Of a stretch of DNA of 35,221 bases, positions 2,458-27,984 are shown piece by piece (position 1 is the stretch's first letter; each line of letters starts with the position of its first letter). Position numbers and translations under genes: made by a program. Below the pieces are notes generated by a model. It was not told the origin of the DNA. It did no database searches and saw only the letters and a program-made list of their open reading frames with translations. Where the stretch lies: the sequence record SRR31156797_927. One strand, written 5' to 3'.

Positions 2458-2895
2458 ATGAGCCATAGGAATCCTGAACTGGTTTTTGAAGATTTGAAGA
2501 AAGGCCGCATCTTCCGGCCCATGAAATTCACTATCAATCGCGACCGTGTAGAGGACTACATGGAAACCGTGGGTGATTATAATCCCTTATATGGAGATAC
2601 GGCCGGCGCGGAATATGCGGGTAGTTCCATTGCCCCTCCAGGATTGGCCGCGGTCTTTGCCCGGCTCTCCTATCTCCAGGACAACACCATGCCTTCGGGT
2701 GGAATTCTGGCGAAGCAAGAGTTCGAGTTTCGTTCTCCCGCGCAGGTAGGCGACGTGCTCACGGTCCAGGCCCGGGTCTTTGACAGCTACCTGGATGAAA
2801 AAGGACGTAGGAGGGTCAATTTCCTCATACAAGCCGTGAATCAGGACCAAAAAGAGATCTGTCTGATCCGTCTTTTCGCCATCTGGCCCAAGTAG
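2458..2895 (+). CDS. MaoC/hotdog dehydratase subunit, probably non-catalytic (HadA-like)
   Basis: GDYNPLY...IAPPG (catalytic His replaced by Tyr); QEFEFRSPAQVGD. Confidence 0.8.
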   Translation: MSHRNPELVFEDLKKGRIFRPMKFTINRDRVEDYMETVGDYNPLYGDTAGAEYAGSSIAPPGLAAVFARLSYLQDNTMPSGGILAKQEFEFRSPAQVGDVLTVQARVFDSYLDEKGRRRVNFLIQAVNQDQKEICLIRLFAIWPK

Positions 2896-3330
2896 ATGAA
2901 AAGGAGTGTGAAAATGAGATTAAAAATCGGCGAAAAACTGCCGTCCGTGACCAAGGATATTGACCAGGAAAGAATCATGGGCTGGGCCAGGCTGTCCGGA
3001 GATTTTAACCGGCTGCACGTGGATCCGGAATATGCCCGGGAAACGCCTTTTAAGGGAACCATCGCCCATGGACCCATGTCTCTGGCCTTTTTAAATGAAC
3101 TGATGATGAATTGCTTCGGTCAGGGCTGGGTCAATGGGGGCCGGCTTCTGGACGTGCGTTTCCTTTCCCCTATCCAGCCCGGTGATCGAATCATCATAGG
3201 TGGTGAGGTAAAGGACCTTCAGCGTGAAGGGAACGTCGGCTGGGTTGAGTGCAGCCTGTCCGTCACCAAGGCCGATGATCGGATTGCCGTATCCGGACGG
3301 GCCATGGTTCCCCTTAAGGAGGATGAATGA
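2896..3330 (+). CDS. MaoC-family (R)-specific enoyl-CoA hydratase, catalytic subunit (start may be 2914)
   Basis: SGDFNRLHVDPEYA..TPFKGTIAHG hydratase-2 motif with Asp/His dyad; RFLSPIQPGD. Confidence 0.9.
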   Translation: MKRSVKMRLKIGEKLPSVTKDIDQERIMGWARLSGDFNRLHVDPEYARETPFKGTIAHGPMSLAFLNELMMNCFGQGWVNGGRLLDVRFLSPIQPGDRIIIGGEVKDLQREGNVGWVECSLSVTKADDRIAVSGRAMVPLKEDE

Positions 3331-4601
3331 TGAACGGGTCACATTTGTCCCGGAAAGTTACCGCGGCGGAGGCCATTGGCGCTTTGAAACCGGGTTGGAG
3401 GGTCTCCCTCCCTTTGTGTTGCGGTCTGCCCCAAAGTCTGGTGGAGGCATTGGTGATGGACGCGGACCGGCTCAAAAAAATGGAAATGGTCAGCGGCCTG
3501 CAGATCGTTTACCCCTTTCTGGCGGACGGCCTTGAGGAGTCCTTCACCTTTCGGACCTGGCAGTGCGCCCCGGCCATCCGCCAACACCTGGAAACCGGAA
3601 GGGTAAAGTATATTCCCATGCGTCAGGGTGACGCGGTCCGGGTCTTCGGACCCCGGGGACCGTGGCCCGTGGATGCGGTCCTGATTCAGGTTTCACCCCC
3701 GGATTCCGAGGGGCGGTGCAGCCTGGGAACCTCCATCGGCCACTCATTGCCGTTGGCCCTGGAAGCGAAGCTGGTGATTGCCGAGGTAAATGAGCGCATG
3801 CCACGGGTGCTGGGTCAGGGATTTATCCATCTGTCTCAGATCGATTTCCTGGTGGAATCGGATCGGGGGCTTCCGGAATTTCCTTCCGGGGGAGAGCCCG
3901 GCGAAAAGGAACGCACCATCGGCCGTCTGGCCGCGGGGCTGATCCCCGACGGGGCCACGGTTCAGATCGGTCTGGGCGCCATCCCCGAGGCAATCATGGA
4001 CCAGCTTGCCCATAAACGGGACCTGGCATTTTATGCCATGGGAATCGACAAAATGGTCGATTTGGTGGAGGCGGGAGCGGTAAGGCGGGATTCCGGCCCG
4101 GCCATCATGGTTACCGAGATTTTGGGAAGCCGAAAGATTTTCGATTTTGTTCACGAAAACCCCCTGGTGGAGGGCCGCCCATTGCCCGAGATGATTAATT
4201 CCAGGATGGCGGGACGTATCCCCCGCTTCTGTTCGGTACTCTCCGCCCTGGAGGTGGATCTCACGGGCCAGGTCAATGCGGAGACCATCCGGGGCAAGCA
4301 GTTGAGCGCGGTGGGAGGCAGCTTTGATTTTTTACAGGGGGCGCTCTTCTCCCAAGAAGGCGTGGCCATTATTGCCCTGCCTTCCACCACCCCCGGAGAT
4401 AAGATTTCCCGCATTGCGGTCCGGCTATCGGCCGGTTCGGCGGTGACCACCCCACGACATTCGGTGCAATACGTGGTCACCGAGTATGGGGTTGCGGAAT
4501 TGTGGGGCCGCTCCATGGGTGAGCGGGCCTTGGCCCTTTCACGGGTGGCTCACCCTGCCTTTCGCGAAGAACTGGAGCGGGAAGCGGCCCGGTTCGGGTA
4601 A
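3327..4601 (+). CDS. Acetyl-CoA hydrolase/4-hydroxybutyrate CoA-transferase family protein (atypical active site)
   Basis: QVSPPD..G.CSLG; IAEVNERMP; IPDGATVQIGLGAIP; LEVDLTGQVNAE; VTTPRHSVQYVVTEYGVAEL. Overlaps the upstream stop (ATGA). Confidence 0.9.
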   Translation: MMNGSHLSRKVTAAEAIGALKPGWRVSLPLCCGLPQSLVEALVMDADRLKKMEMVSGLQIVYPFLADGLEESFTFRTWQCAPAIRQHLETGRVKYIPMRQGDAVRVFGPRGPWPVDAVLIQVSPPDSEGRCSLGTSIGHSLPLALEAKLVIAEVNERMPRVLGQGFIHLSQIDFLVESDRGLPEFPSGGEPGEKERTIGRLAAGLIPDGATVQIGLGAIPEAIMDQLAHKRDLAFYAMGIDKMVDLVEAGAVRRDSGPAIMVTEILGSRKIFDFVHENPLVEGRPLPEMINSRMAGRIPRFCSVLSALEVDLTGQVNAETIRGKQLSAVGGSFDFLQGALFSQEGVAIIALPSTTPGDKISRIAVRLSAGSAVTTPRHSVQYVVTEYGVAELWGRSMGERALALSRVAHPAFREELEREAARFG

Positions 4602-4673
4602 AATCATCGGCCCGCATGGGTCTCCGGCAAAATGTATGAAAGGTTTGACTCCTTCATGAGAAAGGAGAATTCC

Positions 4674-6194
4674 ATGATATCGGTTACGCTGCCCCATTTA
4701 TTGCGCCGATGTGCCGCCAAATTCTCCGGCAAGGAGGCCATTGTCAGCCGGGAAGGGCGATGGACCTTTGGCCAGTGGGACAAAAATTCCAATAAAAGGG
4801 CAAACGTGCTGGCATCCTTGGGAGTGAAAAAGGGCGATCACGTGGCCACCCTGTTCCTGAACGGCAGGGATGTTCTGGAGACCTATTTCGCCCTGTTGAA
4901 GCTGGGCGCTGTTTTGGTCCCCTTGAACGTGCGTATGACGCCGTCGGAGCATGAAAACCTGATCATCCATGCCCGGGCGAAGTATGTCATCTACGGACCG
5001 CAATTCAAGGGTGTGACACAGAAGATAAAAGATAGCCTGCCGCAAGTGGCGGCATGGATCGGATGCGAGGGGGCCGGTGGGCCTGCGCCGGATCTTAACC
5101 GGCTCATGGATCAACAAAATGATCATGATCCCATGGTGGCGGTGGCGGAGGAAGACATGGCCTGCATCCTCTATACCGCCGGGACCACCGGTAAACCCAA
5201 GGGCGTCATGCTTTCCCACCGTAACTGCTTGTGGGCAGCCATCAACCTGGCACAGGACAGTACATTCTCCGGACATTTCCGCGTGCTTTTGGTCTTCCCC
5301 CTTTTCCATTCCGCGGCCTTCAGCCTTGTTAACGTCAGTCTTTATCTGGGTTGTACGCTGGTGTGCATGGAAGAATTCAATCCGAAAGCGGTGATGGATC
5401 TGGTCGCCCATGAGCGGGTCAGCAAGATGGCCTTCCCACCCACGGTCTGGAATTTCATTTTGCAGCTTCCGGATTTGGACCGATACGATACCTCGTCGGT
5501 GGAATCCATATCATCCGGCGCAGAAGTGATGCCTCTCGAGACGAAAAATAGGCTTATGGCGATATTTCCCGGGGCCAAACTGGGCGAGACCTACGGTATG
5601 ACCGAAACCGTGGCGGCCATAACCACCCTCAAGCCCGAATATGTCACGAAAAAGGCCGGGTCCGTGGGTCTGGCATTCACCAATATGGAAATCCGCGTGG
5701 TAAATGAGCGGGACCGGGATGTGCCCCGGGGCGAGGTGGGTGAGGTTCTGGTCCGGGGTCCGAACGTGATGCAGGGATATTTCCGGGATTCCGCGGAAAC
5801 GGCACTTTCTCTCCGGGGCGGGTGGCTCCACACGGGAGACCTGGGCCGCCTTGACAAAGAAGGCTTCCTCTATCTGGTTGATCGCAAAAAGGAAATGATC
5901 ATATCAGGTGGTGAAAATATTTATCCCAGGGAAGTTGAGGAAGTGCTGTACACCCATCCGCATATCTCTGAAGCTGCTGTTTTGGGATTGGCCGATCCCA
6001 TTTGGGGCGAACGGGTGCATGGGGTGGTAAGCCTCAAACCGGGGCGCCTTCTCACGGAGGCGGAAGTGATCGCCTTTTGCGGGAAGCGCCTGGCCGGATT
6101 CAAAAAAACCAAGTCCGTGGCGTTTGTGGACAAGCTGCCCAGGTCGCCGGCGGGCAAGGTCCTCAAGCGTTTGCTCCGGGATAAAGGCGAATAG
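4674..6194 (+). CDS. Acyl-CoA synthetase (class I adenylate-forming)
   Basis: AAGGAG RBS before ATG 4674; YTAGTTGKPKG, YGMTE, GWLHTGDLG, DRKKEMIISGGENIYP, GKVLK. Confidence 0.93.
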   Translation: MISVTLPHLLRRCAAKFSGKEAIVSREGRWTFGQWDKNSNKRANVLASLGVKKGDHVATLFLNGRDVLETYFALLKLGAVLVPLNVRMTPSEHENLIIHARAKYVIYGPQFKGVTQKIKDSLPQVAAWIGCEGAGGPAPDLNRLMDQQNDHDPMVAVAEEDMACILYTAGTTGKPKGVMLSHRNCLWAAINLAQDSTFSGHFRVLLVFPLFHSAAFSLVNVSLYLGCTLVCMEEFNPKAVMDLVAHERVSKMAFPPTVWNFILQLPDLDRYDTSSVESISSGAEVMPLETKNRLMAIFPGAKLGETYGMTETVAAITTLKPEYVTKKAGSVGLAFTNMEIRVVNERDRDVPRGEVGEVLVRGPNVMQGYFRDSAETALSLRGGWLHTGDLGRLDKEGFLYLVDRKKEMIISGGENIYPREVEEVLYTHPHISEAAVLGLADPIWGERVHGVVSLKPGRLLTEAEVIAFCGKRLAGFKKTKSVAFVDKLPRSPAGKVLKRLLRDKGE

Positions 6195-6378: not shown

Positions 6379-7398
6379 ATGAAAATGACCCGATTTGTTG
6401 TATGTGCATTCCTGGCTTTGATGGTTCCATTCGCCGTCCTGAATATTTCAAAAGACGCAATTGCAGAGGATAAATCGATTCGAACTCTGAAATTGGCAAC
6501 TCTTTACTCTGAAGGGAAGGAGCTTTTTAAGACCGTACAGTTTTTTGCCGATGAAGCGGAGAAAAGAACCCAAGGTAGAATTAAATTCAAAATTTTCCCG
6601 GGCAATTCCCTGGTCCCTTCCAAACAGGCCCTGTCGGGTGTTCACAGGGGAGTGGTGGATGCGGCATTTGTTCCGGCTGCCTATGAACAGCAACTATGGC
6701 CCATAACAGCCATGACCATGACCTTTGGGGCCCCGAATCTCACCTATGAAAATTGGCGGAAGATCCACGATCCCATCAGAGACATTATGAACCGGAGCCT
6801 GAACATCAACGTGGTGATCCTCGGCATGCCCCATGTGCTCAATTATTTTTTCTATGCAAAGAAACCCGTCACGGGCACTTTGAAAGACTTCAATAATACC
6901 CTCGTGAGAAGCGCCGGCGGGGCCTACGATCCCTCTTTCAAGGCGCTGGGATGCGCGCCCGTGAAGATACCGGCGCCCGAGGTTTATATGGCCTTACAAA
7001 AGGGGACCATCGATAGCGGATGGAATATTTACAGCCGGTATGTGGAGGGAAAATTGTACGAGGTCGTACCCAATGTGGTGGTGATCCCCAAAGGAATGGT
7101 TATCAGCGGACAACACTTTATTATCAATAAGAAGATATGGGAAAGTCTGCCCCCTGATATCCAAAAGATCTTACTCCAGGTGGGAACGGACGTTGTCGCC
7201 TTCACCAACGACAACTCCGCAGCGTCGGATAAAAAAGTCCTGGAAGAGATTCTTCCCGAAATGGGAATCAAACCCATCGTCATGAGCGAAGCGGAAAACA
7301 AACGCCTGATTGGTCGCCTCATGCCGGTATGGGGTCCGGTCAAGGAAAGATTGGGGAAACCGGGTGCGCAGATCGCGGAAATTCTCGGGGTGAAGTAG
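6379..7398 (+). CDS. dctP: TRAP transporter substrate-binding protein
   Basis: Signal peptide; RTQGRIKFKIFPGNSL; LVRSAG (Arg); EVYMALQKGTIDS; followed by dctQM. Confidence 0.92.
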   Translation: MKMTRFVVCAFLALMVPFAVLNISKDAIAEDKSIRTLKLATLYSEGKELFKTVQFFADEAEKRTQGRIKFKIFPGNSLVPSKQALSGVHRGVVDAAFVPAAYEQQLWPITAMTMTFGAPNLTYENWRKIHDPIRDIMNRSLNINVVILGMPHVLNYFFYAKKPVTGTLKDFNNTLVRSAGGAYDPSFKALGCAPVKIPAPEVYMALQKGTIDSGWNIYSRYVEGKLYEVVPNVVVIPKGMVISGQHFIINKKIWESLPPDIQKILLQVGTDVVAFTNDNSAASDKKVLEEILPEMGIKPIVMSEAENKRLIGRLMPVWGPVKERLGKPGAQIAEILGVK

Positions 7399-7420
7399 AT
7401 TGATCCAAGGAGATAATCCT

Positions 7421-7909
7421 ATGTTGTTGCGATTGATCACACGTGTAAACTTCATGGTGGATTGTCTTACCGCAGTCTCCTTTGTAATCATCACCGCCGG
7501 GGTGCTCATTGCGGTTTTCGGGCGATATCTTTTCCGATGCCCCGTACCGTCAGCCATGGAAGCTGCTTACTACGCCATGTTGTGTTGTGCCTTTTTGCAG
7601 ACCGGAAAGGCGCTTTTTGAGGGAAAACATGTGGCCATGTCTTTTTTATTGGACCGGGTGTCGGGAAAATCAAAGGCGGTCCTCGGCATTGTGGTCAATG
7701 TCATCATTTTGATAACGGCCCTGTTCATGAGTTGGTATGCAGCTTCCTTTAGCTGGGAGTCTTTTCTTTTCAAATGGTGCGCTTCCGGCTCGCTACCCGT
7801 TCCCCTGTTTTGCCTTTATGGAATTATGGCTTTCGGCACGGTTTACCTCGGTTTTATCGCCGTATTTAAAATGATTGAATATGGGAAACAGATCAGGAAG
7901 GGAAATTAA
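7421..7909 (+). CDS. dctQ: TRAP transporter small permease
   Basis: AAGGAG RBS before ATG 7421; four hydrophobic segments; VFGRYLF and GKHVAM motifs. Confidence 0.9.
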   Translation: MLLRLITRVNFMVDCLTAVSFVIITAGVLIAVFGRYLFRCPVPSAMEAAYYAMLCCAFLQTGKALFEGKHVAMSFLLDRVSGKSKAVLGIVVNVIILITALFMSWYAASFSWESFLFKWCASGSLPVPLFCLYGIMAFGTVYLGFIAVFKMIEYGKQIRKGN

Positions 7910-9214
7910 ATGGAATCCAGCTATATCCCTGCAATGATAATGAGCGGTATGCTTCTGATGCTGCTGGTCATGGGTGTGCCCATTTCTTTCGTCCTGACCT
8001 TTCTCGGCATCTTTGCCTGTTTTGTATGGATCGGAGCCGGATCTATTCTTCAGATCGTGCAGACTTTCTTCGGCACTTGCTCATCGGAAATTCTGCTGTG
8101 TCTACCGCTTTTTTTGTTGATGGCGGAGATCGTTGTGGTGGCGGACATCGGTAAAGACCTTTTCAACGCCATCAAGCTCTGGATGGGTCGGCTAAAAGGG
8201 GGTGTGGCCGGAGCCACGCTCATCGGTTGCGGCCTTTTTGCCGCGGTAAGCGGTTCCAGTACGGCTACCATTGCCGCAGTCGGTACCATAGCCCTGATTG
8301 AAATGTTGCGTTTGGGGTATAGAAAAGACTTCGCCAGCGGCACGGTGGGCGTGGGGGGCACCTTGGGGGTCATGATACCGCCGAGCATCATCATGATTTT
8401 ATACGGGGCACTTACCGATCAGTCCATCGGAAAACTGTTCATCGCCGGTGTGGTACCCGGGATTATGTTGGCAATGGGGTATGTGGGATTCGCCATTTTC
8501 CGGGCTTATCACAACCCCCTGCTGGCCCCGGTCCCCCTTGAAAAAATCCCGCTCCAGGAAAAACTTCGCGCTTCCCGATCCGTTATCCCTTTTTTCATTA
8601 TTTTTGTCGCCATGTTCTGGGCATTTTACACGGGTGTGGCCACCCCCACGGAAGTGGCCGCCGTAGGGGTTCTGGCGTCTCTGATCATCAGCGTCGGGAT
8701 GGGAAGATTGAACCTGTCGGCCCTGTTTAAGGCAACCGGCAGGGCCGGTGCAACCACCGCCTTTGTTCTGTTTATTATTGCCGGAGCCAAGTTTTTCACC
8801 TTTACGGTTTCCGCCACCGGCGTTACCCGTTTACTGACCGAGAGCATTATCAGTCTTGGCTTGTCCCAGTTTCAACTCGTCCTGCTGATGATGCTGATCT
8901 ATTTGATGATGGGATGTTTTATTGATCCGGCAGGTATGCTCACCCTTACAATTCCGTTTTTTCTACCTGTCCTGGTGGCAGCAAATGTGGATCTGATCTG
9001 GTTCGGTATCCTTGCCACGGTCAATTCGGAATTGGGGTACTGCACGCCGCCATTCGGGTTTAATCTGTTTGTGCTGAAAGGCGTGGCACCGCCGGAGGTG
9101 AGTATCCAGAATATTATCAAGGGTGTATTACCCTTTATTGTGGTCGATTTCATATTACTTATTCTTATTTTGTTTTTTCCTCAAATTGTGCTCTGGCTTC
9201 CATCACACATGTAG
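7910..9214 (+). CDS. dctM: TRAP transporter large permease
   Basis: GVPISF; FAAVSGSSTA; GGTLGVMIPPSI..ILYG; TPTE; TPPFG.NLFV. Confidence 0.95.
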   Translation: MESSYIPAMIMSGMLLMLLVMGVPISFVLTFLGIFACFVWIGAGSILQIVQTFFGTCSSEILLCLPLFLLMAEIVVVADIGKDLFNAIKLWMGRLKGGVAGATLIGCGLFAAVSGSSTATIAAVGTIALIEMLRLGYRKDFASGTVGVGGTLGVMIPPSIIMILYGALTDQSIGKLFIAGVVPGIMLAMGYVGFAIFRAYHNPLLAPVPLEKIPLQEKLRASRSVIPFFIIFVAMFWAFYTGVATPTEVAAVGVLASLIISVGMGRLNLSALFKATGRAGATTAFVLFIIAGAKFFTFTVSATGVTRLLTESIISLGLSQFQLVLLMMLIYLMMGCFIDPAGMLTLTIPFFLPVLVAANVDLIWFGILATVNSELGYCTPPFGFNLFVLKGVAPPEVSIQNIIKGVLPFIVVDFILLILILFFPQIVLWLPSHM

Positions 9215-9323: not shown

Positions 9324-10358
9324 ATGGAAATGATTCTACCAGGCAAAGTGACATTGTCGGACCTGACGGTCCGGGACGGCTTCCAGAGTGAAAAACGCGT
9401 TATCCCGACCGATGCGAAACTCTATATCATTAACGGTCTTGTGGATGCGGGCTTCAGGGAAATGGAGGTGGCAGCTTTTGCGCCTCCCCGGTATCAACCC
9501 CAATTCAGGGATTGGGAAGAAGTGCTGAAGGGGCTGCCCGATCGGGATGATGTGACCTATTCCTGCGTGACCACGGGCAAAAAAGCAACTCAAAGGGCTC
9601 TGCTGGCAAGGGAAAAGGGATATCGTGTGGACAGGATTCTACTGGGGATTCTTCCTGCCAGTGAAAAACTTAACAAGATCGTTCTTGGATTAAATTACGA
9701 AGAAACCTGGCAATGGATCGCTGAAACCGTGAGGATTGCCCACCAACTGGATATGAAAGTAAACGTTTTTTTAACGGGCATCTTCAGCCCCCCTGATCCG
9801 GAAGAGAAACGGGTGGACCTCATGGAACGTGCTTTGGCGTTTGTGGACAAACTCCTGGACATCGGCGTGGATGATATCGAGCATCCCGACCATCTGGGGG
9901 AATCGTGCCCGGAGCGGGTTTATGCTTATTTTACCCGTGTTCTCGAAAAGCATCCGGATCCCAATCTGCACGTCTTCCACATTCATGACGCGAGAGGGTT
10001 GGGTCTTGCATGCTATTTTGCGGCACTGCAGGCCGGCATTACCCGCTTCGAGACGACCATGGGGGGGCTTGGAGGATGGCCCGCAAACTTTGTGGACGAC
10101 GTCCCCGTGCCGGGCTTAATCGGCTTGACCGAGGTCTCCCGGCGCCCCGGTCTTGTTTCCACGGAAGATTTTCTGGTCATGCTGGACGGGATGGGAATTG
10201 AATCGGGAATCGATCTGGATAAGGTCATGGTGCTCGGAAGAATGGTCGAACAGATTGTCGGGCGTGAACTCTGGAGTTTTACACAGGGGACGGGTATGAG
10301 CCGTCCCGGAGCGGGACGTATTCCCGAAATACAAGAATATAAGAAGGAACAAAGGTAA
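9324..10358 (+). CDS. HMG-CoA lyase-like DRE-TIM metallolyase (substrate uncertain)
   Basis: DLTVRDGFQ; EMEV; HIHDARGLG (HxH); GGLGGWP; VSTED; GIESGIDLDK. Confidence 0.88.
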   Translation: MEMILPGKVTLSDLTVRDGFQSEKRVIPTDAKLYIINGLVDAGFREMEVAAFAPPRYQPQFRDWEEVLKGLPDRDDVTYSCVTTGKKATQRALLAREKGYRVDRILLGILPASEKLNKIVLGLNYEETWQWIAETVRIAHQLDMKVNVFLTGIFSPPDPEEKRVDLMERALAFVDKLLDIGVDDIEHPDHLGESCPERVYAYFTRVLEKHPDPNLHVFHIHDARGLGLACYFAALQAGITRFETTMGGLGGWPANFVDDVPVPGLIGLTEVSRRPGLVSTEDFLVMLDGMGIESGIDLDKVMVLGRMVEQIVGRELWSFTQGTGMSRPGAGRIPEIQEYKKEQR

Positions 10359-10362
10359 TATT

Positions 10363-12021
10363 ATGAGTGTGGAAAAGATAAGGAAAAACCAGGAAAAATG
10401 GGAAGCCGAACACCAATTGGAGCGGCTTCCCACCGCAAAAAGCGATATGGGGGAAGCGTTAAAGGTCGTGTACACCCCGGCCGATGTCGATCATGTGGAC
10501 TATCTAAAGGATATCGGCTATCCCGGCGAGTACCCTTACACCCGGGGCGTTTATCCCGGAATGTACCGAAAAAGACCCTGGCAAATGCGTCTCTATTCCG
10601 GGTTCGGCACGGCGGAAGACACCAATAAGCGGTGGAAATTCCTTCTGGAGAGGGGGAATAACGGTGTGGCCGTCGCCTTTGACCTCCCTACCCAGATGGG
10701 TATCAATTCCGACCATCCCCATGCGGAGGATGAGGTGGGGAGGTTGGGCGTGGCCATTGACACGCTTCGGGATATGGAAATCCTGTATGCGGATCTGCCT
10801 CTGGAAAAACTGGTCTCCTCCTTTAACATCAATGCGCCGGCAGCCATTATCCTCGCCATGTATATTGCCATGGGAGAGAAACAGGGCGTGCCTTTGGAAA
10901 GACTCGCAGGAACCATTTCAAATGATATCCTTTGCGAATATGTTTCTCGCGGCATGTGGGTATTCCCCCCATCCCCCGCCCTCCGATTGGTGGGCGATCT
11001 TGCGGAATATTGCGCCAAACACCTGACCAAATTCTATCCCTTCAACATCAGGGGGATCATCATGAGGGAAGCCGGCGCCGACATGATACAGGAAGCGGCC
11101 TTTGCATTTTCAAACGCCCTGGCCTATATCCAGGAAATCACTTCCCGGGGGCTTAACGTGGACGATTTTGCCCCTCGCATCTCTTTCTTTTTTGCAACGG
11201 GACTTCAGATATTTGAAGAGGCGGCACGATACCGGGCGGCCAGAAAACTGTGGGCGAAAATCATGAGAGAAAGGCTCCGTGCCAAAGATCCGAAATCCAT
11301 GCTGTTTCGCTTCACCGGTACAACGGGCGGTAGTTATTACCGGCCCAGGGAACCGCGGAACAATCTGGTTCGAGGCGCTTACGGGCTGCTGGGAAATATC
11401 CTGGGCGGCGCACAGGGCATGCTCCATCCCGCGTGGGATGAACCCTTTGCCATTCCCACGGAGGAATCATCCACCCTGGCCTTGAGAACCCAGCAGATAC
11501 TCGCTTACGAGACCGGCATTACAAAGGTTGCGGACCCCCTGGGAGGGTCCTACTTTGTTGAGGCATTGACAAAGGCATATGAAGGCCGAATTGAAGAAAT
11601 TATGCAAAAAATCGATGAGATGGGAGGAGCGGTAAGGGCCATCGAAGAGGGTTATATGCAAAAGGAAATCGCCGGCGAAGCATACCGCGTTATGAAAGAG
11701 GAGAAATCCGGCGAACGCGTCATCGTGGGCATGAACAAGTTCGTCACGGAAAATGAAAAATCGGAAAAGCATGAAATGGTATTCCATGAGGCGGATCCCC
11801 TCACCCGCCAACGGCAGATGGAACGTCTTGATCGGGTGAGGGAAGAACGGGACAATGTCGCCGTGAGGGACTGCCTCGCCGAACTCAAGGAGAAAGCAAA
11901 GGGTAAGGAAAATCTAATGCCTCACTTGGTGAAGGCCGTAAAGGCATACGCCTCCATAGAGGAAATCATGGAGACCCTCAAGGATGTCTTCGGCACATTT
12001 CGAGAACCCATTAACATATAG
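10363..12021 (+). CDS. Coenzyme B12-dependent acyl-CoA mutase, large substrate-binding subunit (MCM family, divergent specificity)
   Basis: PGEYPYTRG.YP.MY..RPW.MRLYSGF; AFDLPTQMG; NDIL; FAPRISFFF; ALRTQQILAYETG; DPLGGSYFVE. Confidence 0.95.
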   Translation: MSVEKIRKNQEKWEAEHQLERLPTAKSDMGEALKVVYTPADVDHVDYLKDIGYPGEYPYTRGVYPGMYRKRPWQMRLYSGFGTAEDTNKRWKFLLERGNNGVAVAFDLPTQMGINSDHPHAEDEVGRLGVAIDTLRDMEILYADLPLEKLVSSFNINAPAAIILAMYIAMGEKQGVPLERLAGTISNDILCEYVSRGMWVFPPSPALRLVGDLAEYCAKHLTKFYPFNIRGIIMREAGADMIQEAAFAFSNALAYIQEITSRGLNVDDFAPRISFFFATGLQIFEEAARYRAARKLWAKIMRERLRAKDPKSMLFRFTGTTGGSYYRPREPRNNLVRGAYGLLGNILGGAQGMLHPAWDEPFAIPTEESSTLALRTQQILAYETGITKVADPLGGSYFVEALTKAYEGRIEEIMQKIDEMGGAVRAIEEGYMQKEIAGEAYRVMKEEKSGERVIVGMNKFVTENEKSEKHEMVFHEADPLTRQRQMERLDRVREERDNVAVRDCLAELKEKAKGKENLMPHLVKAVKAYASIEEIMETLKDVFGTFREPINI

Positions 12022-12034
12022 GACGGTTAAAAGC

Positions 12035-12451
12035 ATGAATGGAAAAAGAAAGATGAGGGTGTTGGTGGCAAAAGCGGGGCTTGATGGGCATGACAGGGGC
12101 GCCAAAGCCGTTGCCCGGCTTCTGAAGGATGCCGGCATGGAAGTGATTTACGCCGGACTTCATCAAACCCCGGAACAGATTGTCAATGTGGCCATACAGG
12201 AAGATGTGGACGTCATCGGGGTCAGCATCTTATCGGGAGCCCATATGGGGATCTCACGGAAAATCCTGGGGAATCTTCAGAAAAAAAGGGCGAAAAACAT
12301 CGAATACATTGTGGGGGGGATTATCATTGACCGGGATGTTCGGAAACTGAAGGAAATGGGCGTGGCGGAGGTCTTTCCCATGGGTTCGGATATAGATGAT
12401 ATCGTAGCGTTTTTTGAAAAACATAATCACCCATCATTATGTGAAGGATAA
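12035..12451 (+). CDS. Acyl-CoA mutase small subunit (cobalamin-binding)
   Basis: RVLVAKAGLDGHDRGAK (DxHxxG); AIQEDVDVIGVSILSGAH; VGGII. Confidence 0.95.
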   Translation: MNGKRKMRVLVAKAGLDGHDRGAKAVARLLKDAGMEVIYAGLHQTPEQIVNVAIQEDVDVIGVSILSGAHMGISRKILGNLQKKRAKNIEYIVGGIIIDRDVRKLKEMGVAEVFPMGSDIDDIVAFFEKHNHPSLCEG

Positions 12452-12455
12452 TATT

Positions 12456-13595
12456 ATGAGGGATCTGTTCCTGACGGAAGCGCACATGATTTTCCGGGAT
12501 CAAATTCGACGTTTTTGCGAATTTGAAATTGCCCCCCTGGTGCAGGAGGCTGAAGAGACGGAAACTTTCCCAGTATCCCTATTCCCCAAGATGGGGGAAT
12601 TAGGTTATCTGGCTGTTCGTTACCCTGAAACATATGGTGGCGCCGGCGCAGACAAATTAACGGATGTGATCCTCCGTCAGGAAATGTCACGGATTTGTCA
12701 GGGCATTGCCAGCAGTTGGTCATCCCATTCCCATTTGGCCACCTTTCCAATCTATCACGCCGGGACGGAAGACCAAAAGGAAAGGTATCTGGTTCCCGCC
12801 ATTAAAGGGGATAAAATCGGCGGTTTTGCACTTACGGAACCGAATGCCGGTTCGGATACAAGGTCGATTGAGAGCTTCGCAAAAAGGGATGGTGACCATT
12901 ACACCTTGAATGGCTCGAAGACCTTTATATCCAATGCCCCCATCGGCGATTTTCTGACAACCGTGGCTTATACGGATAAAACCAAAGGATACAACGGCAT
13001 CAGCATTTTCATTGTCGATTGCCATACCCCGGGCATGAGCATTACGAAATTAAAGAAAGAGGGGATCCGGTCCTCGGAGACGGGCGAAGTTTCATTTGTG
13101 GATTGTGTTATACCCGTTGCGAACCTGCTGGGTCATAAAGAAGGCAATTACAGCCTGGTTATGGAAACCCTTTCCGAAGGCAGAATCGGTGTATCCGGAA
13201 ATATGCTGGGTGTGGCCCAGGCGGCATTGGAAGCAGCCGTAAAATACGTCAAAGAACGTATCCAGTTTGGTAGGCCCATCGGCAAATTCCAGGCAATTTC
13301 TCACAAGGTGGCGGAAATGGCGACCCAAATTCAGGCGGCGCAACTCATGGTTTACTCAGCCGCTAAGAAAATGGACATGGGGATCGCCTCCACGTTTGAT
13401 GCATCCGCCACCAAGCTTTTTACCTCGGAAGTGGCCGTGAAGGTGGCCCGGGAAACCATTCAAATCTTCGGTGGCTATGGATTCATGCGGGAATATCCGG
13501 TTTTTCGATATTTGAGGGATGCATTGGTCTATACGGTTGGAGAGGGCACTTCCGAAATCCAAAAAAATATCATTGCAAAAGAACTGGGCCTTTGA
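12456..13595 (+). CDS. Acyl-CoA dehydrogenase (catalytic Glu at MCAD-type position)
   Basis: ALTEPNAGSD; LNGSKTFISN; RIQFGRPIGKFQ; QIFGGYG; VGEGTSEIQ. Confidence 0.95.
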   Translation: MRDLFLTEAHMIFRDQIRRFCEFEIAPLVQEAEETETFPVSLFPKMGELGYLAVRYPETYGGAGADKLTDVILRQEMSRICQGIASSWSSHSHLATFPIYHAGTEDQKERYLVPAIKGDKIGGFALTEPNAGSDTRSIESFAKRDGDHYTLNGSKTFISNAPIGDFLTTVAYTDKTKGYNGISIFIVDCHTPGMSITKLKKEGIRSSETGEVSFVDCVIPVANLLGHKEGNYSLVMETLSEGRIGVSGNMLGVAQAALEAAVKYVKERIQFGRPIGKFQAISHKVAEMATQIQAAQLMVYSAAKKMDMGIASTFDASATKLFTSEVAVKVARETIQIFGGYGFMREYPVFRYLRDALVYTVGEGTSEIQKNIIAKELGL

Positions 13596-13659: not shown

Positions 13660-15228
13660 ATGCTGATCGGTGACATCCTTTCCATGAGCGCATACCGTTT
13701 TCCTGACAAAGTGGCGCTCATTACACGGGAAGCTCGCTTGACTTACAAAGAGCTTGAAGCGAATGCCAATAGAATGGCACGTGTTCTTCTGAAACTTGGC
13801 GTAAAAAGGGGAGACCGGGTTGGAATAATAGATAAAACCTGCGGTTCATGCATCGAAACGGCTTTGGCTGTCATCAAAACAGGCGGCATACTGGTCAACA
13901 TTAACAACCTTCTGGGTCACGAAGAACTGCTCGGGGTCATTGAGGACTGTGATCCGGCGGTTTTAATTTTTGGAAATGAATATGAAACGCTGATTCGAGG
14001 CATTAGGGATGTTTCTCCGGGTATCCGACATTATCTCTCCATGGGAAGCTGTGGGTGGACTGTTTCGTTGAAAAGAGAGGCCGCATGCGAACCGGCCGAC
14101 AGCCCCGGTGTTGATATTAAGGAGAACGATGCGTTCATGATTTTGTATACCGCTGGGACCACGGGGGAACCCAAGGGGGCCGTTTATACGCATGGGGCTT
14201 TTTGGGAAAATCTCCTCATGACGGTCATCGATACCTACCAACAGACCTATGGAGACATATGGATCGGTCCCGTACCCATGTACCATATCGGCGGCTTTGG
14301 TACATTAATGCGTATTCTTTTAATGGCAAACACCTTTATATTGAAAAGTAAATTTGATCCGTCGGATTATCTTCTGACCATTGAAAAGGAGAAAGTCACC
14401 ATACTCTATGCCTATCCCACCATGATCAACGCCATGATTCAAACTCCGGAAGCGGATGCGTGTGATCTTTCTTCACTGAAATTGCTCATCTATGGGGGAT
14501 CTCCCATCCCTGAAGCCACTTTAAAGAGCGCTTATGAATTGTTCCGATGTGATTTTCTCCAGAGATACGGCGCCACTGAATGCTGCGGTTCGGCTATTTT
14601 AATCCTTGCGCCGGAAATGCATCGATCGGTTTTGTCGGGGGACGAAATCCATAAAAAGAAATTACAATCGGCGGGCAAACCGTGCCTGGGGGTTAAGGTA
14701 AAACTCATGGCAAAAAATGGTGAGGAGGTAACCGATCCGGGCAAACCCGGAATCTTGCTGGCTCAATTACAAGGGCCGATGAAAGGATACTGGCGGGCGC
14801 CCGGAAAAACAGCCGCGGCCTTTAAAAATGGTTGGCTCTGTTTGGGAGATATCGCAAAATTTGATCAAGACGGGTTCTTTTATCTCGTTGACAGGGCCAA
14901 AGACATGATCGTTAGCGGGGCACGCAATATTTATCCCAGGGAGGTGGAAGAAGTCCTGTACTCCCACCCCGCTGTTAAAGAGGCATGCGTCGTCGGTGTT
15001 CCGGACGACTACTGGGGAGAAGCGGTGAAAGCGGTGGTTGCGTTAAGGCACGACATTAAGGCTACGGAACAAGAACTGATCGCGTATTGCGGTCAGCGTT
15101 TGGCCGGCTATAAGAAGCCTAAAAGCGTTGATTTCGTTGCGTCATTGGCCAAGAATGCCGGGGGGAAAATCGATAAAAAAGAGCTAAGACGGAAGTATTG
15201 GCGAGGAAAGGATAGACTTGTTCATTAA
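13660..15228 (+). CDS. Acyl-CoA synthetase (class I adenylate-forming)
   Basis: YTAGTTGEPKG; YGATE; GWLCLGDIA; DRAKDMIVSGARNIYP; GKIDK. Confidence 0.93.
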   Translation: MLIGDILSMSAYRFPDKVALITREARLTYKELEANANRMARVLLKLGVKRGDRVGIIDKTCGSCIETALAVIKTGGILVNINNLLGHEELLGVIEDCDPAVLIFGNEYETLIRGIRDVSPGIRHYLSMGSCGWTVSLKREAACEPADSPGVDIKENDAFMILYTAGTTGEPKGAVYTHGAFWENLLMTVIDTYQQTYGDIWIGPVPMYHIGGFGTLMRILLMANTFILKSKFDPSDYLLTIEKEKVTILYAYPTMINAMIQTPEADACDLSSLKLLIYGGSPIPEATLKSAYELFRCDFLQRYGATECCGSAILILAPEMHRSVLSGDEIHKKKLQSAGKPCLGVKVKLMAKNGEEVTDPGKPGILLAQLQGPMKGYWRAPGKTAAAFKNGWLCLGDIAKFDQDGFFYLVDRAKDMIVSGARNIYPREVEEVLYSHPAVKEACVVGVPDDYWGEAVKAVVALRHDIKATEQELIAYCGQRLAGYKKPKSVDFVASLAKNAGGKIDKKELRRKYWRGKDRLVH

Positions 15229-15245: not shown

Positions 15246-15770
15246 ATGGCTGTCTACAGATACGGAAAACATGCGCCTGTAATCGGCGGGGAATGTTATA
15301 TCAGCGATTCGGCAAGAGTCATCGGGAATGTCATTTTGGAAGATTGCTGTTATGTTGGACATGGGGCCGTTATCCGCGCTGATCATGGGACGATCCATAT
15401 CGGACGGGGCTCGGCAATTGAAGAAAATGTTGTAATACATGTCCGTTCCGGGCAGACGTACATTCTGGAAGAACAGGTAACCCTGGGGCATGGGGCCATT
15501 ATCCATGGGGATTTAATAAAGGCTTTTGCCGTTATCGGTATGGGGGCTGTTGTGGGCCGGGAAACCACGGTGGGCAAATGGGCCGTGGTGGCCGAGGGTG
15601 CCGTCGTTCCCAGGGGACAAATAATCGAGGATGAAACCATCGTTGCGGGAGTCCCCGCAAAGGTGATTTCTCAAGTCACATGGAAACATAAAGAATATTG
15701 GGTATGGGCTAAACAAGTCTATGAAGATTTTGCGCGTGATTACGAAAAGGAGCTGGTCAGATTGTACTGA
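15246..15770 (+). CDS. Gamma carbonic anhydrase family protein (PaaY/CaiE/YrdA-like)
   Basis: Hexapeptide repeats; VIRAD; IEENVVIH; VTLGHGAIIHG (three His ligands); AGVPAKV. Confidence 0.9.
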   Translation: MAVYRYGKHAPVIGGECYISDSARVIGNVILEDCCYVGHGAVIRADHGTIHIGRGSAIEENVVIHVRSGQTYILEEQVTLGHGAIIHGDLIKAFAVIGMGAVVGRETTVGKWAVVAEGAVVPRGQIIEDETIVAGVPAKVISQVTWKHKEYWVWAKQVYEDFARDYEKELVRLY

Positions 15771-16149: not shown

Positions 16150-16794
16150 GTGGGCATAGCGGAGAGGAGAGAGCGTGAGCGTGATCTTCAGCAAAAGATG
16201 CGCCGCGGGCAGATCCTGGATGCCGCGAAACGGCTCTTTTATGCAAAAGGATTCAGCTCCGCAACCATGGAGGATATTGCTCAAGAGGCGGAATTAAGCC
16301 CGGCTGCATTATATCTCTATTTCAAAAATAAAGACGATCTCTATGTTTCCCTCAACCTTCAGCTTTTAGAGTACCTCTCTGATAAACTGGAAAGGCTTTT
16401 TCTGCAGGAAAGCCTTGATGCGGAAGAAAAGGTTGAAGCCTTAAAAGGCCTCTTTTACGATGTCTACAATTTCGACCCGCTGATTCTCATAAACCTGTTT
16501 CACCTCCAGGCCAGCGATGGCCTCAAAAACCTGCCTCCCCACCGGCTTTCCCAGTTAAATGAATTGGCAGGCAAGAGCCTCAGAAGCCTTGCCGCCATAT
16601 TTGATCAGGGAAAGGGGGAAGGGCGTTACATGGACTACCATTCCACCGCCCTCGCCGACATTGTCTGGATCATCTTTACGGGTGCGGTTCTATGGGAGGA
16701 GAGCAAACGGATGACAAACCCCCGTAAGGATTATCTGAAAGGCACCCTGGATCTTGCAATCGATATTTTGAAACGGGGCATAAGGAAGGGATAA
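16150..16794 (+). CDS. TetR/AcrR-family transcriptional regulator
   Basis: ILDAAKRLFYAKGFSSATMEDIAQEAELSPAALYLYFKNKDDL; GTG start with RBS. Confidence 0.95.
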   Translation: MGIAERRERERDLQQKMRRGQILDAAKRLFYAKGFSSATMEDIAQEAELSPAALYLYFKNKDDLYVSLNLQLLEYLSDKLERLFLQESLDAEEKVEALKGLFYDVYNFDPLILINLFHLQASDGLKNLPPHRLSQLNELAGKSLRSLAAIFDQGKGEGRYMDYHSTALADIVWIIFTGAVLWEESKRMTNPRKDYLKGTLDLAIDILKRGIRKG

Positions 16795-16857
16795 CATTCA
16801 TAACAACCGGATCATACAAAAGGATTAGTAAAAAACACGGAGGTTAACCATTAGTAA

Positions 16858-17685
16858 ATGGAAAATATGTTGAACAACAAGGTTGCCATCATAACAGGAT
16901 CGGGAAGGGGCATTGGACGCGCCGTCGCGCTCATGTTCGCCCGGGAAGGGGCCAGCGTTGTGGTGAGCGATATTGATGCGGAGCCGGCTGAACGGACGGT
17001 GGCGGACATCAAGGCGGCAGGTGGAGACGCCGTAACATACCTTGGGGATGTCACCGATCCCGATTTCGCCAAAGGCATTGTGGGGGCTGCGGCCGATATG
17101 TGGGGAGCAGTGCATATTATCGTAAACAACGCGGGCTTCACGTGGGATGCTCTGGTTCACAAAATGACCGAGGAACATTGGGACAAGATTCTGGATCTGC
17201 ACCTCAAAGCGCCATTCCGCATTATCCAGGCGGCCAAACCGTATTTTTGCGACGAGGCCAAGCGGGAAAAAAAGCGGGGGGAAAAGGTCTCGCGGAAAAT
17301 AATCAATATTTCCTCCATGGCGGGCCTCGGCGGAAATCCGGGCCAGGCCAACTATTCTTCAGCCAAAGCCGGCCTCGTGGGCTTGACCAAGACCATCAGC
17401 AAGGAATGGGCCCGGTATGATGTTCAGTGCAATTGCGTGGCTTTCGGATTCATCGACACCCGCCTTACGCAAGAAAAGGAAATGGGCCTCAAAGTGAAAA
17501 CAAAAGACCAAGAGATAGCCCTCGGGGTCCCCAGAAGGCAACGGGACATGTTCATAAAAATGATTCCCATGGGTAGACCCGGCACCGCGGAAGAAGCGGC
17601 GGGAACGATTCTTTTCTTTGCATCACCCTTGTCGGACTACGTTTCAGGTCAGGTTCTGGTGGTCGGGGGCGGGTTCTCAATGTAG
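16858..17685 (+). CDS. SDR-family 3-hydroxyacyl-CoA dehydrogenase/3-oxoacyl reductase
   Basis: TGSGRGIG; VSDID (acidic, suggests NAD); NNAG; SS; YSSAK. Confidence 0.93.
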   Translation: MENMLNNKVAIITGSGRGIGRAVALMFAREGASVVVSDIDAEPAERTVADIKAAGGDAVTYLGDVTDPDFAKGIVGAAADMWGAVHIIVNNAGFTWDALVHKMTEEHWDKILDLHLKAPFRIIQAAKPYFCDEAKREKKRGEKVSRKIINISSMAGLGGNPGQANYSSAKAGLVGLTKTISKEWARYDVQCNCVAFGFIDTRLTQEKEMGLKVKTKDQEIALGVPRRQRDMFIKMIPMGRPGTAEEAAGTILFFASPLSDYVSGQVLVVGGGFSM

Positions 17686-17721
17686 CCGGACCCCATGTGT
17701 CCCGGATCAAGGAGAAACAAA

Positions 17722-18561
17722 ATGACACTCAATCTTCATATGGTTGGGGAAAAGATGGGCCCCGTTCCGTTCACGTACGACGAGGACAGGGTCATTCTGT
17801 ATGCCTTGGGTATAGGGGCGGGCGTGGAGGAACTTAATTTCGTCTACGAGAAGAACCTGGCTGTTTTTCCGACCTTTGCCGTGGTTCCTTACATCCCTTC
17901 GCTTCTCGGTTCCTTCGTTCCCCGGGTAAACCTCAATTTACTTGCCGTTCTTCACGGCGAACAGAAAATAGTGCTGCACAAACCCATCCCTAACTCAGGG
18001 ACGATCCATACCACCACCCGGTGGGATTCCGTTTATGACAAGGGCGATAAGGGCGCAATGCTCAATATCAGTTTTAAGACCCGGAACGAAAATGGCGACC
18101 TGCTTTTCGAGAACCGGGCCGTCGTCGTGGACCGCAGTGCAGGCAATTTCGGTGGGGACAGGGGTCCCAAGTCGGAGATCGTCGTCCCTCCCGGGGGAAA
18201 GGAGCCCGACTTTTGTGTGGAATATGTCACCAGCCGGGATCAGTGCGCGCTCTACAGACTCAGCGGCGATAAAAACCCCCTTCACATCGATCCTGAATTT
18301 GCCGCAAAAGGCGGCTTCGATCGCCCCATCCTGCACGGTCTCTGCTCCTTCGGCTTCGCGGGGAGGGCCATACTTCACAGCGTCTGCGGGAGTGATCCGG
18401 CCCGTTTTAAATCCTTTTCAGTGCGGTTCATGAATGTGGTTTACCCCGGAGAAACCCTGATTACCGAGGGATGGAAGACGGATACGGGGACCTATATTAT
18501 TCAAACCAGGACCCGGGACGGCAGGGTCATTCTGGGTAATGCCGTGGCGGAGGTGGGTTAA
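17722..18561 (+). CDS. Double-hotdog enoyl-CoA hydratase 2 (MFE-2 hydratase-like)
   Basis: AAGGAG RBS; ILYALGIG; PTFAV; LHGEQ; YRLSGDKNPLHIDP.FA..GGFDRPILHGLC. Confidence 0.93.
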   Translation: MTLNLHMVGEKMGPVPFTYDEDRVILYALGIGAGVEELNFVYEKNLAVFPTFAVVPYIPSLLGSFVPRVNLNLLAVLHGEQKIVLHKPIPNSGTIHTTTRWDSVYDKGDKGAMLNISFKTRNENGDLLFENRAVVVDRSAGNFGGDRGPKSEIVVPPGGKEPDFCVEYVTSRDQCALYRLSGDKNPLHIDPEFAAKGGFDRPILHGLCSFGFAGRAILHSVCGSDPARFKSFSVRFMNVVYPGETLITEGWKTDTGTYIIQTRTRDGRVILGNAVAEVG

Positions 18562-18621
18562 AGGCGCCTTTAGCGCAAGCTTTTTTGGGCTGATGTTGCA
18601 ACCAAAAAGGAGGGGAATCAA

Positions 18622-19767: not shown

Positions 19768-19795
19768 CCTTTGGTAGTGGGAGGGGGGAGAAAAC

Positions 19796-21244: not shown

Positions 21245-21298
21245 TCCTGGGCTACGAACCCCGGACCACCCGGAGTGTGTTGAGAGGAGGACGCAATA

Positions 21299-23480: not shown

Positions 23481-23486
23481 CAAAAT

Positions 23487-26096: not shown

Positions 26097-26131
26097 TGGA
26101 ATCAACTAAAATCTAAAAAAACGAAAAATCC

Positions 26132-27964: not shown

Positions 27965-27984
27965 TAAGAGAGAAGGAGGAGAAA

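Follow-up and report, generated by a model that had tools for sequence, protein, structure and literature searches.

A candidate specificity class of split B12-dependent acyl-CoA mutases with a rebuilt active site, encoded in a conserved catabolic operon

To our knowledge, few substrate specificities of adenosylcobalamin (AdoCbl)-dependent acyl-CoA mutases have been characterised, namely those of methylmalonyl-CoA mutase (MCM), isobutyryl-CoA mutase (ICM) and IcmF, ethylmalonyl-CoA mutase (ECM), 2-hydroxyisobutyryl-CoA mutase (HCM/RCM) and pivalyl-CoA mutase (PCM), to which some proposed ones may be added, and each new specificity has so far opened a pathway or a biocatalytic route. In MCM, Tyr89 and Arg207 bind the free carboxylate of the substrate and His244 hydrogen-bonds the thioester carbonyl; in ICM, IcmF and PCM, Tyr89 is replaced by Phe or a small hydrophobic amino acid and Arg207 by Gln. 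Split mutases are described from further systems. IaaGH of Aromatoleum aromaticum, according to PMC8360864, acts on substituted succinyl/malonyl-CoA (phenylsuccinyl/benzylmalonyl-CoA) and is encoded in an anaerobic catabolic operon together with ligase, CoA-transferase, binding protein and acyl-CoA dehydrogenase; the same source places iaa operons also in Desulfatiglans and names as the mark of all of them the decarboxylating dehydrogenase IaaF with its GGG motif. ActD/MatB, members of the HCM-type split subclass, figure in PMC5719088 as the proposed hexylmalonyl-CoA mutase of actinonin/matlystatin biosynthesis. Here, we describe a mutase encoded at positions 10363–12451 of a 35,221-nucleotide stretch of DNA from sequence record SRR31156797_927 (the whole stretch is called the window below), which is predicted to be a functional split two-subunit AdoCbl-dependent acyl-CoA mutase and belongs to a conserved catabolic operon. 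The clade around it, recognisable by the motif N-I-R-G-I-I, lacks the Tyr-His pair, which all characterised classes aligned here possess, and comparison of sequences supports its status as a conserved, distinct and biochemically uncharacterised specificity class.

The large, substrate-binding (TIM-barrel) subunit is encoded at 10363..12021 (plus strand, 552 aa) and matches PF01642 (2.3e-177, 591 bits against a cutoff of 22.1) and TIGR00641 (603.5 bits against 303.8), while the small B12-binding subunit, listed at 11984..12451 on the same strand, matches PF02310 (5.6e-25) and TIGR00640 (146 bits against 57) and carries the base-off/His-on motif DxHxxG as DGHDRG. Both reading frames are uninterrupted and, as listed, overlap by 38 nt; the true start of the small subunit is probably the Met at 12035, since its orthologues comprise 131–142 aa. 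The AlphaFold2 (AF2) model of the large subunit (pLDDT 91.2, pTM 0.92) superimposes on the HCM chain 4r3u_A with a TM score of 0.96, an rmsd of 1.4 Å and 44% identity, and on MCMs with TM scores of 0.90–0.94 and identities of 34–39%; HCM 4r3u is also the best solved match found by HMMER (E 2.1e-157, 527.9 bits). The PF01642 match, the fit to 4r3u and the DGHDRG motif bear out the original prediction, made from the letters of the sequence, that the scaffold and the small subunit are intact.

Active site of the large subunit

Residues were paired by means of HMMER alignments to the solved MCMs of human (2xij), M. tuberculosis (6oxc) and P. shermanii (1req/1e1c), the P. shermanii chain in the alignment being the H244A mutant 1e1c, and to HCM 4r3u. 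The offset of about 11 relative to P. shermanii MCM numbering, assumed in the original prediction, is correct, and all motif strings quoted there occur in the translation of 10363–12021 at the residues given. In common with MCM, the window has, apart from the barrel scaffold, the equivalents of Tyr89 (Y78; RLYSGF from residue 76 on, against RQYAGF in MCM and RQIAGF in HCM), Arg207 (R196; VSRGMW from 194, against the motif (V/A)R) and Glu247 (E236). The differences comprise the replacement of Gln197 of TIQNDILKE by S186 (TISNDILCE, from 184), of Lys202 of NDILKE by C191, of Ser241 of SISGYH by R230 (NIRGII, from 228), of Tyr243/His244 (SISGYH(M/I) in MCM, NISGYH in HCM) by I232/I233, of His328/Gln330 of R(T/A)H(S/C)QT by T318/T320 (RFTGTTGG, from 316), and of His364-Thr-Asn366 of QSLHTNS by L354-H355-P356 of QGMLHPA (QGMLHPAWDE, from 351); the codons from R230 to I232 and I233 occupy nucleotides 11050–11061. 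The signature of the large subunit therefore reads Y78, S186, C191, R196, N228-I-R230-G-I232-I233, T318, T320 and G352-M-L-H-P-A-W358. Alignment to the solved enzymes upheld both the three retained residues and the substitutions at Gln197, Tyr243/His244, Gln330 and SLHTN that the original prediction had listed; overlooked at that stage were the PAW(D/N)E stretch common to the window and ECM and the exchange of the Lys of NDILKE for Cys, found in 121 of the 121 clade sequences considered below. Titles of Protein Data Bank entries show that Y89F and H244A mutants of MCM were studied; the roles of the residues themselves are not given there.

TIM barrels form their active sites where the strands end C-terminally, and in the AF2 model the exchanged residues sit at or just past the C-terminal ends of the predicted strands 182–185, 227–230, 316–321 and 352–354. 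Arg230 is the final residue of strand 227–230, and this new invariant Arg stands two residues upstream of the position of the lost Tyr-His pair. It might replace His244 as polar partner of the migrating thioester or bind a displaced carboxylate or second acid group, and the exchanges are consistent with an enlarged pocket. The radical machinery is retained: the Tyr89 equivalent, the DE pair that follows barrel strand seven and the DxHxxG motif of the small subunit are all in place. Most of the remaining residues at the C-terminal strand ends are exchanged, the otherwise typical Tyr-His pair among them.

As for the membership in described classes, the NCBIfam MCM equivalog NF006944 scores 493.6 on the large subunit, below its cutoff of 876. 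The reference for ECM was the fused mutase L052:7579-9963 of Methylobacterium bullatum, whose identity rests on adjacency to the crotonyl-CoA carboxylase/reductase gene ccr (TIGR01751, 617 bits against 378) and which reads IRTYAGHS, TQNDIIKE, SRG, PMNVCSYH, FRYGVQV and VQLPAWNE. The window resembles this anchor in keeping Tyr and Arg, in the loss of the His328 equivalent and in the P-A-W-(D/N)-E stretch, but it has none of the anchor's RTYAGH, Gln197, Lys, S-Y-H and Gln330, and the anchor is moreover a fused single chain with a 3-residue insertion ahead of the last motif. Since the ccr-linked anchor reads IRTYAGHS, the ECM motif RTYAGH invoked in the original prediction is real, and it is absent here (RLYSGF and RGII in the window against IRTYAGHS and CSYH). 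A divergent MCM or ECM isozyme carrying out a known reaction in a differently built pocket would account for the retained equivalents of Tyr89, Arg207 and Glu247, for the PAW(D/N)E stretch and for the database name of the relatives, "methylmalonyl-CoA mutase"; we nevertheless regard it as quite unlikely in view of the missed equivalog cutoff, the fixed replacement of Gln197, Tyr243, His244, His328, Gln330 and Asn366, and the fact that the same genomes encode canonical split paralogues of the MCM type (such as L007 in genome G001), recognisable by SGYH, FHTQT and SLHTN. The lyase, hydratase and CoA-transferase encoded beside the mutase are likewise foreign to propionate metabolism and to the ethylmalonyl-CoA pathway, and no ccr was detected among the open reading frames (ORFs) of the window of at least 150 aa or the 19 scanned proteins.

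The signature of ICM, IcmF and PCM is not found either, the window having Tyr and Arg at the positions where the ICM-like paralogue L008 has Phe and Gln, with the IcmF equivalog scoring 259.7 against a cutoff of 1500. HCM (HcmAB of Aquincola tertiaricarbonis, 4r3u) shares the split architecture, with a large chain of about 560 aa and a separate small one for B12; its motifs RQIAGF, TDFD, QADILKE, AQK, NISGYH, FHCQT and QSLHTN are matched in the window by RLYSGF, VAFD, SNDILCE, SRG, NIRGII, FTGTT and QGMLHP, respectively. Ile90, Asp117 and Gln208 of 4r3u, which we take to be the HCM specificity positions, all differ, the window having Tyr, Ala and Arg instead. By sequence, the candidate class is set apart from MCM, ECM, ICM-type enzymes and HCM, and it might still group with IaaG, ActD/MatB, PCM, RCM, Lcm or the alkane-pathway mutase. 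IaaGH is distinguished by the operon marker, and ActD/MatB by description, as biosynthetic enzymes accompanied by crotonyl-CoA carboxylase/reductase and an epimerase, for which the evidence is genetic and from labelling.

Conservation of the clade and diversity of the family

Conservation was assessed for the query and its 120 best database homologues, 63–89% identical. Invariant in all 121 sequences are Y78, C191, R196, N228, R230, R235, E236, T318 and G319, as well as Q351, M353, L354, A357, D359 and E360, and the remaining exchanged positions vary within narrow limits: Ile (116 sequences) or Val (5) at 232, Ile (107), Leu (13) or Val (1) at 233, Ser (105) or Ala (16) at 186. With only 153 of the 552 alignment columns at least 99% identical, the active-site replacements are therefore among the most constrained positions. 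The ratio of nonsynonymous to synonymous substitution rates (dN/dS, Nei-Gojobori) against four orthologous loci of 81–86% identity is 0.052–0.085, values that are rough as dS is near saturation. Such complete or near-complete invariance of the exchanged positions among sequences just 63–89% identical overall is far beyond chance; the replacements are conserved under purifying selection, and the large subunit is a maintained enzyme rather than a decaying copy. In this point the original prediction, which had read the exchanges as selection rather than decay, holds good, and the substitutions are fixed across the clade rather than confined to one strain. A decayed or non-catalytic paralogue deprived of the catalytic His, as the simultaneous loss of the Tyr243 and His244 equivalents might suggest, is thus highly improbable given the dN/dS of 0.05–0.09, the invariance of the replacements, the co-conserved DxHxxG subunit, the intact reading frames and an operon conserved in at least 13 genomes.

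Among 1.84 billion representatives of 50%-identity clusters, the whole clade collapses into a single one, P0121 (62% identity, 792 bits), followed by the next at 50% identity and 594 bits. Sampling of 401 genomes from the phylum of the closest named genome match, a Desulfatiglandales metagenome-assembled genome (MAG), revealed a clade member at 62% identity or more in at least 13 of them, the other mutase paralogues in these 401 genomes being at most 52% identical to the query; one clade-bearing genome has four mutase paralogues. In a FastTree phylogeny of 90 sequences (the query, 7 clade members, 75 representatives, 5 paralogues and two Methylobacterium anchors; the representatives are near-full-length and were taken by rank, with those outside 500–720 aa left out), the clade obtained an SH-like support of 99. 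It is nested in a group of 15 rows, also with support of 99, all lacking the His244 equivalent and with position 230 taken by Arg, Lys or Gln (YRRTL, YRRAL, HIRGGL, NIQGVF, LKGGL), and the ECM and MCM anchors are placed elsewhere; the support values are local ones rather than bootstraps, and they fall below 80 on 33 of the 87 inner branches.

The 150 nearest cluster representatives (P0121–P0270) display 97 distinct five-site signatures. The position of His244 is occupied by His in 84 of them, by another residue in 64 and by a gap in two; the Tyr-His pair occurs in 59, the Tyr/Arg pair in 64 and the full MCM-like set of Tyr, Arg and Tyr-His in only 39. The signature Y/R/R/I/I is found in the clade's own representative exclusively, and Arg or Lys at 230 coincides with loss of His233 in six representatives (one of them, P0149, gapped at 233). 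Across the superclade Arg230 co-varies with the loss of His233, and this pairing of a basic residue at 230 with the missing His is consistent with a functional swap. The claim that the active site matches no recognised class stands in so far as the signatures of MCM, ECM, ICM-type enzymes and HCM are all absent; the uniqueness implied by it was overstated, because 64 of the 150 representatives carry another residue in place of this His, 97 signatures exist and the superclade lacks this His as well. Judged by these signatures, the clade is no unique oddity but one among many acyl-CoA mutase specificities of anaerobes that await exploration; conservation and a clear operon are what set it apart. 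The same two counts, 97 signatures and 64 representatives with a residue other than His, make the annotation "methylmalonyl-CoA mutase" often uninformative in genomes of anaerobes, and a large part of the specificity space of this enzyme family is still to be explored.

Searches of full-text literature returned no paper describing the clade or its candidate reactions. In a plasmid collection, tblastn produced 427 matching records, all below 60% identity, hence no clade member, the best annotated match (from Streptomyces canus) having the canonical MCM-type signature. Scanning of genome contigs with the motif pattern gave five loci, two of which are clade members (L001, 81%; L004, 71%).

The operon and its candidate substrates

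The genetic surroundings of the mutase were compared over 22 loci, comprising the window, 10 loci from genomes and 11 from metagenome contigs, with genes counted within 9 kb; L001/L054 and L059/L060 look like duplicates, several contigs are short, and most misses fall at contig ends. A CoA-transferase is present at 19 loci, mostly directly upstream of the mutase, both subunits of a hot-dog hydratase at 18, a gene for an HMG-CoA-lyase-like (HMGL) enzyme and one for the acyl-CoA dehydrogenase ACAD1 at 17 each, the small subunit adjacent to the large one at 16, a ligase at 14, DctM and a GntR regulator at 11 each and a PaaY-like gene at eight. They typically follow the order (GntR)-TRAP-HMGL-hotA-hotB-CoAT-MutL-MutS-ACAD1-ligase-PaaY, where MutL and MutS denote the mutase subunits. 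HMGL comes in two lengths, about 345 aa (the window type) and about 428 aa, and the long type, represented by L039, passes the NCBIfam cutoff for the HMG-CoA lyase subfamily (263 against 246). With a clade so tightly defined and strongly selected, and with a complete conserved operon, the reaction is testable with six recombinant proteins.

In the window, the genes of the plus strand start with subunit A of the two-subunit MaoC-type enoyl-CoA hydratase (2458..2895; PF13452, 1.1e-12) and subunit B with the MaoC dehydratase domain (2896..3330; PF01575, 1.7e-20), the solved relatives of the latter being (R)-specific enoyl-CoA hydratases and HadB. A family-I CoA-transferase of the 4-hydroxybutyrate CoA-transferase type (3327..4601; PF13336, PF02550; best solved matches, 4-hydroxybutyrate CoA-transferases, at 2.8e-83) is separated by an AMP-forming acyl-CoA ligase (4632..6194; PF00501, 1.3e-87) from the tripartite ATP-independent periplasmic (TRAP) transporter DctP-DctQ-DctM (6379–7398, 7400–7909 and 7910–9214; PF03480, PF04290, PF06808). 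The HMGL gene (9324..10358; PF00682, 3.5e-26), whose best solved matches are HMG-CoA lyases at 1e-29, ends with its stop 4 nt ahead of the mutase start. Downstream of the mutase lie ACAD1 (12414..13595, true start probably near 12456), with Pfam ACAD domains and 5ol2_C of the Bcd type as best solved match (2.2e-102), a second AMP-forming acyl-CoA ligase (13660–15228; PF00501, PF13193) and a PaaY/CaiE-like hexapeptide protein (15246–15770; Hexapep), every NCBIfam match of these last two being under the equivalog cutoff. Divergent from the operon, on the minus strand, are a GntR/FCD regulator (417–1109; PF07729, PF00392) and a second DctP binding protein (1205–2233; PF03480). No Rfam family reached the gathering threshold in the window (1–35221), hence no cobalamin riboswitch was recognised upstream of this B12-dependent operon. 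In ACAD1 the catalytic-base motif YEG is replaced by GEG, which is preserved in 17 of 17 orthologues; PMC8360864 presents GEG as the motif of methylsuccinyl-CoA dehydrogenase, with the loss of Tyr fitting alpha-substituted or bulky substrates.

From the retained Tyr/Arg pair, the PAW stretch resembling that of ECM, the dehydrogenase with GEG and the generally smaller, more hydrophobic pocket residues, we consider it rather probable that the mutase, as an uncharacterised class, provides the isomerase step in the catabolism of a short branched (C5–C7) dicarboxylyl-CoA. The TRAP system would take up a carboxylic acid, the CoA-transferase or a ligase would turn it into the CoA ester, the mutase would rearrange this ester by 1,2-shift of the thioester group, the GEG-type dehydrogenase would introduce an alpha,beta double bond, the two-subunit MaoC hydratase would add water, and the HMGL enzyme would cleave the C-C bond, yielding acetyl- or propionyl-CoA as the acyl-CoA product besides an oxo compound. 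A lyase is expected to replace the dehydrogenase/thiolase pair when the beta-carbon is tertiary or bears a carboxylate, as in the chemistry of malyl-, citramalyl- and HMG-CoA; one member of the HMGL family is (R)-citramalyl-CoA lyase.

Within this scheme two routes may be drawn, each using every conserved gene once; they are roughly equal to one another, and either of them taken singly is only a tentative proposal, short of likely. In the first, glutaryl- or ethylmalonyl-CoA would be converted to 2-methylsuccinyl-CoA, then to mesaconyl-CoA and to citramalyl- or methylmalyl-CoA, ending in pyruvate or glyoxylate plus acetyl- or propionyl-CoA; the CoA-transferase would possibly shift CoA from C1 to C4, the way it is moved on mesaconyl-CoA in Chloroflexus. 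In the second, 2,2-dimethylsuccinyl-CoA would pass through 3-methylglutaryl-CoA, 3-methylglutaconyl-CoA and HMG-CoA to acetoacetate and acetyl-CoA, with a C5 analogue leading from dimethylmalonyl-CoA through 3-methylsuccinyl-CoA to citramalyl-CoA. The further-reaching possibility that the clade catalyses an undescribed skeleton rearrangement, with Arg standing in for Tyr-His, and thereby opens a self-contained anaerobic pathway for branched or quaternary-carbon dicarboxylates in sediment Desulfobacterota receives from us slightly less than even credence. Examples of such a rearrangement would be glutaryl-CoA to 2-methylsuccinyl-CoA or 2,2-dimethylsuccinyl-CoA to 3-methylglutaryl-CoA.

Several observations weigh against the interpretation of the mutase and its operon given here. 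ACAD1 is closest to butyryl-CoA dehydrogenases (5ol2, 346 bits), with dicarboxylyl-CoA enzymes behind (3mpi, 243; 6es9, 194), and butyryl-CoA dehydrogenases as nearest solved relatives call for caution regarding a dicarboxylate. The HMGL enzyme of the window stays below the subfamily cutoff for HMG-CoA lyase (163 against 246), and the partner enzymes of the operon have no specific match. A chaperone of the MeaB type was not seen among the window ORFs of at least 150 aa or the scanned proteins. The large subunit has no small-subunit gene beside it at L043, L044, L046 and L047 (the last a short contig), the genomes of these loci holding small subunits elsewhere that are 58–62% identical. Finally, the module is not fixed, since at the clade locus L041 HMGL and ACAD1 give way to hydantoinase A/B and a crotonase.

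The locus in question (L041:8683-19740) encodes a clade member of 67% identity with the same motifs. Its operon includes hydantoinase A/B together with a hydratase of the crotonase type, neither HMGL nor ACAD1 lies within reach, and the module may be rewired for a lactam or a ketone-derived substrate.

Partner genes and pocket residues also bear on the notion of a mutase for bulky 2-substituted succinyl- or malonyl-CoA (aryl- or long-alkyl-), like IaaGH, ActD/MatB or alkylsuccinyl-CoA mutase, with the dehydrogenase, hydratase and lyase processing the side chain. Compared with MCM, much of the pocket is lined by smaller or more hydrophobic residues (Q to S, K to C, Y to I, H to I, H to T, Q to T), and these are still smaller in other members of the superclade (G-G-L, G-A-L), although Ile-Ile fills more volume than the residues of these Gly-containing relatives. 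In the sister group (L005), the mutase is accompanied by hydantoinase A/B, a ligase and a dehydrogenase with VEG, the motif of benzylsuccinyl-CoA dehydrogenase according to PMC8360864, and the Desulfatiglans iaa operons reported by the same source fit the Desulfatiglandales MAG being the closest named genome match; yet ACAD1 has GEG, not the GGG of IaaF, and neither a decarboxylase, a carboxyltransferase nor a fumarate-adding glycyl-radical enzyme is present among the window ORFs of at least 150 aa or the scanned proteins. The glycyl-radical enzyme encoded beside the L030-type relative is of the PFL2/dehydratase type, lies convergently and is no X-succinate synthase. On this balance such a bulky substrate is unlikely.

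Two linkages were examined in this respect and rejected. Assignment to an iaa (indoleacetate) operon is ruled out by GEG, in place of the IaaF-type GGG, in 17 of 17 ACAD1 orthologues. The alkylsuccinate link through the L030-type relative is rejected since the glycyl-radical enzyme next to that relative belongs to the PFL2/HypD/sulfopropanediol-dehydratase type, scores below all cutoffs and lies convergent to the mutase; the linkage expected for alkylsuccinyl-CoA mutase, a fumarate-adding glycyl-radical enzyme or carboxyltransferase, was found neither in the window ORFs and scanned proteins specified above nor in the table of 22 loci.

The proximity of ACAD1 to short-chain and isovaleryl-type dehydrogenases, the logic of a mutase followed by a lyase for the removal of a quaternary carbon, the acetone-carboxylase-family genes (hydantoinase A/B) at L041 and HCM as the best solved relative (527.9 bits; 44% identity in the model alignment) would agree with a monocarboxylic or hydroxy acyl-CoA substrate of the PCM- or HCM-like kind, for instance with conversion of pivalyl- to isovaleryl-CoA, which the dehydrogenase, hydratase and lyase would turn into acetone and acetyl-CoA. 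The Tyr/Arg pair is, however, invariant in the clade, in contrast to Phe/Gln in the ICM-like L008 and Ile/Gln in HCM, and the Asp of the HCM motif TDFD is Ala in the window, which renders this substrate type improbable.

Neighbouring and related loci

The dicarboxylyl-CoA operon proposed above is followed in the window by a second acyl-CoA module (16150–22495), not conserved next to the mutase at other loci and consisting of a TetR regulator, a short-chain dehydrogenase/reductase (SDR), a hydratase of the MFE-2 type, an acyl-CoA dehydrogenase that reads YAG at its catalytic-base motif, with no Glu at the usual place, and an SCP-x-type thiolase. It also encodes a 482-aa protein in which an HMG-CoA-synthase-like part is fused to a ChsH2 zinc-ribbon/OB domain, resembling the archaeal thiolase/HMGCS/DUF35 trio with two of the parts fused. 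After the thiolase, at 22611–29169, reading of the translations indicates a LivHMGF-type ABC transporter, a 610-aa AMP ligase of the long-chain type and a LivK-like binding protein.

Relatives of the mutase are found in other genetic settings too. The sister-group locus L005:3359-13273, with the signature N-I-Q-G-V-F, comprises a cupin-HTH regulator, hydantoinase A, a CoA ligase, both mutase subunits, a VEG-motif acyl-CoA dehydrogenase and hydantoinase B fused to an acetone-carboxylase-gamma-like domain, a layout that recalls the iaa operon without its GGG dehydrogenase. At L075:6810-11554, a mutase pair of the H-I-R-G-G-L type faces, in convergent orientation, a glycyl-radical enzyme of 797 aa (PFL2/HypD/sulfopropanediol-dehydratase type) that stays under every NCBIfam equivalog cutoff, and an ADP-forming acyl-CoA synthetase is located close by. 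Another paralogue type from the same phylum (L021, L022 and L025) reads PISICGGHLRGAG, LRVFAVGGGG and AVMTCPYDE; it keeps the His, and several Gly residues open its pocket.

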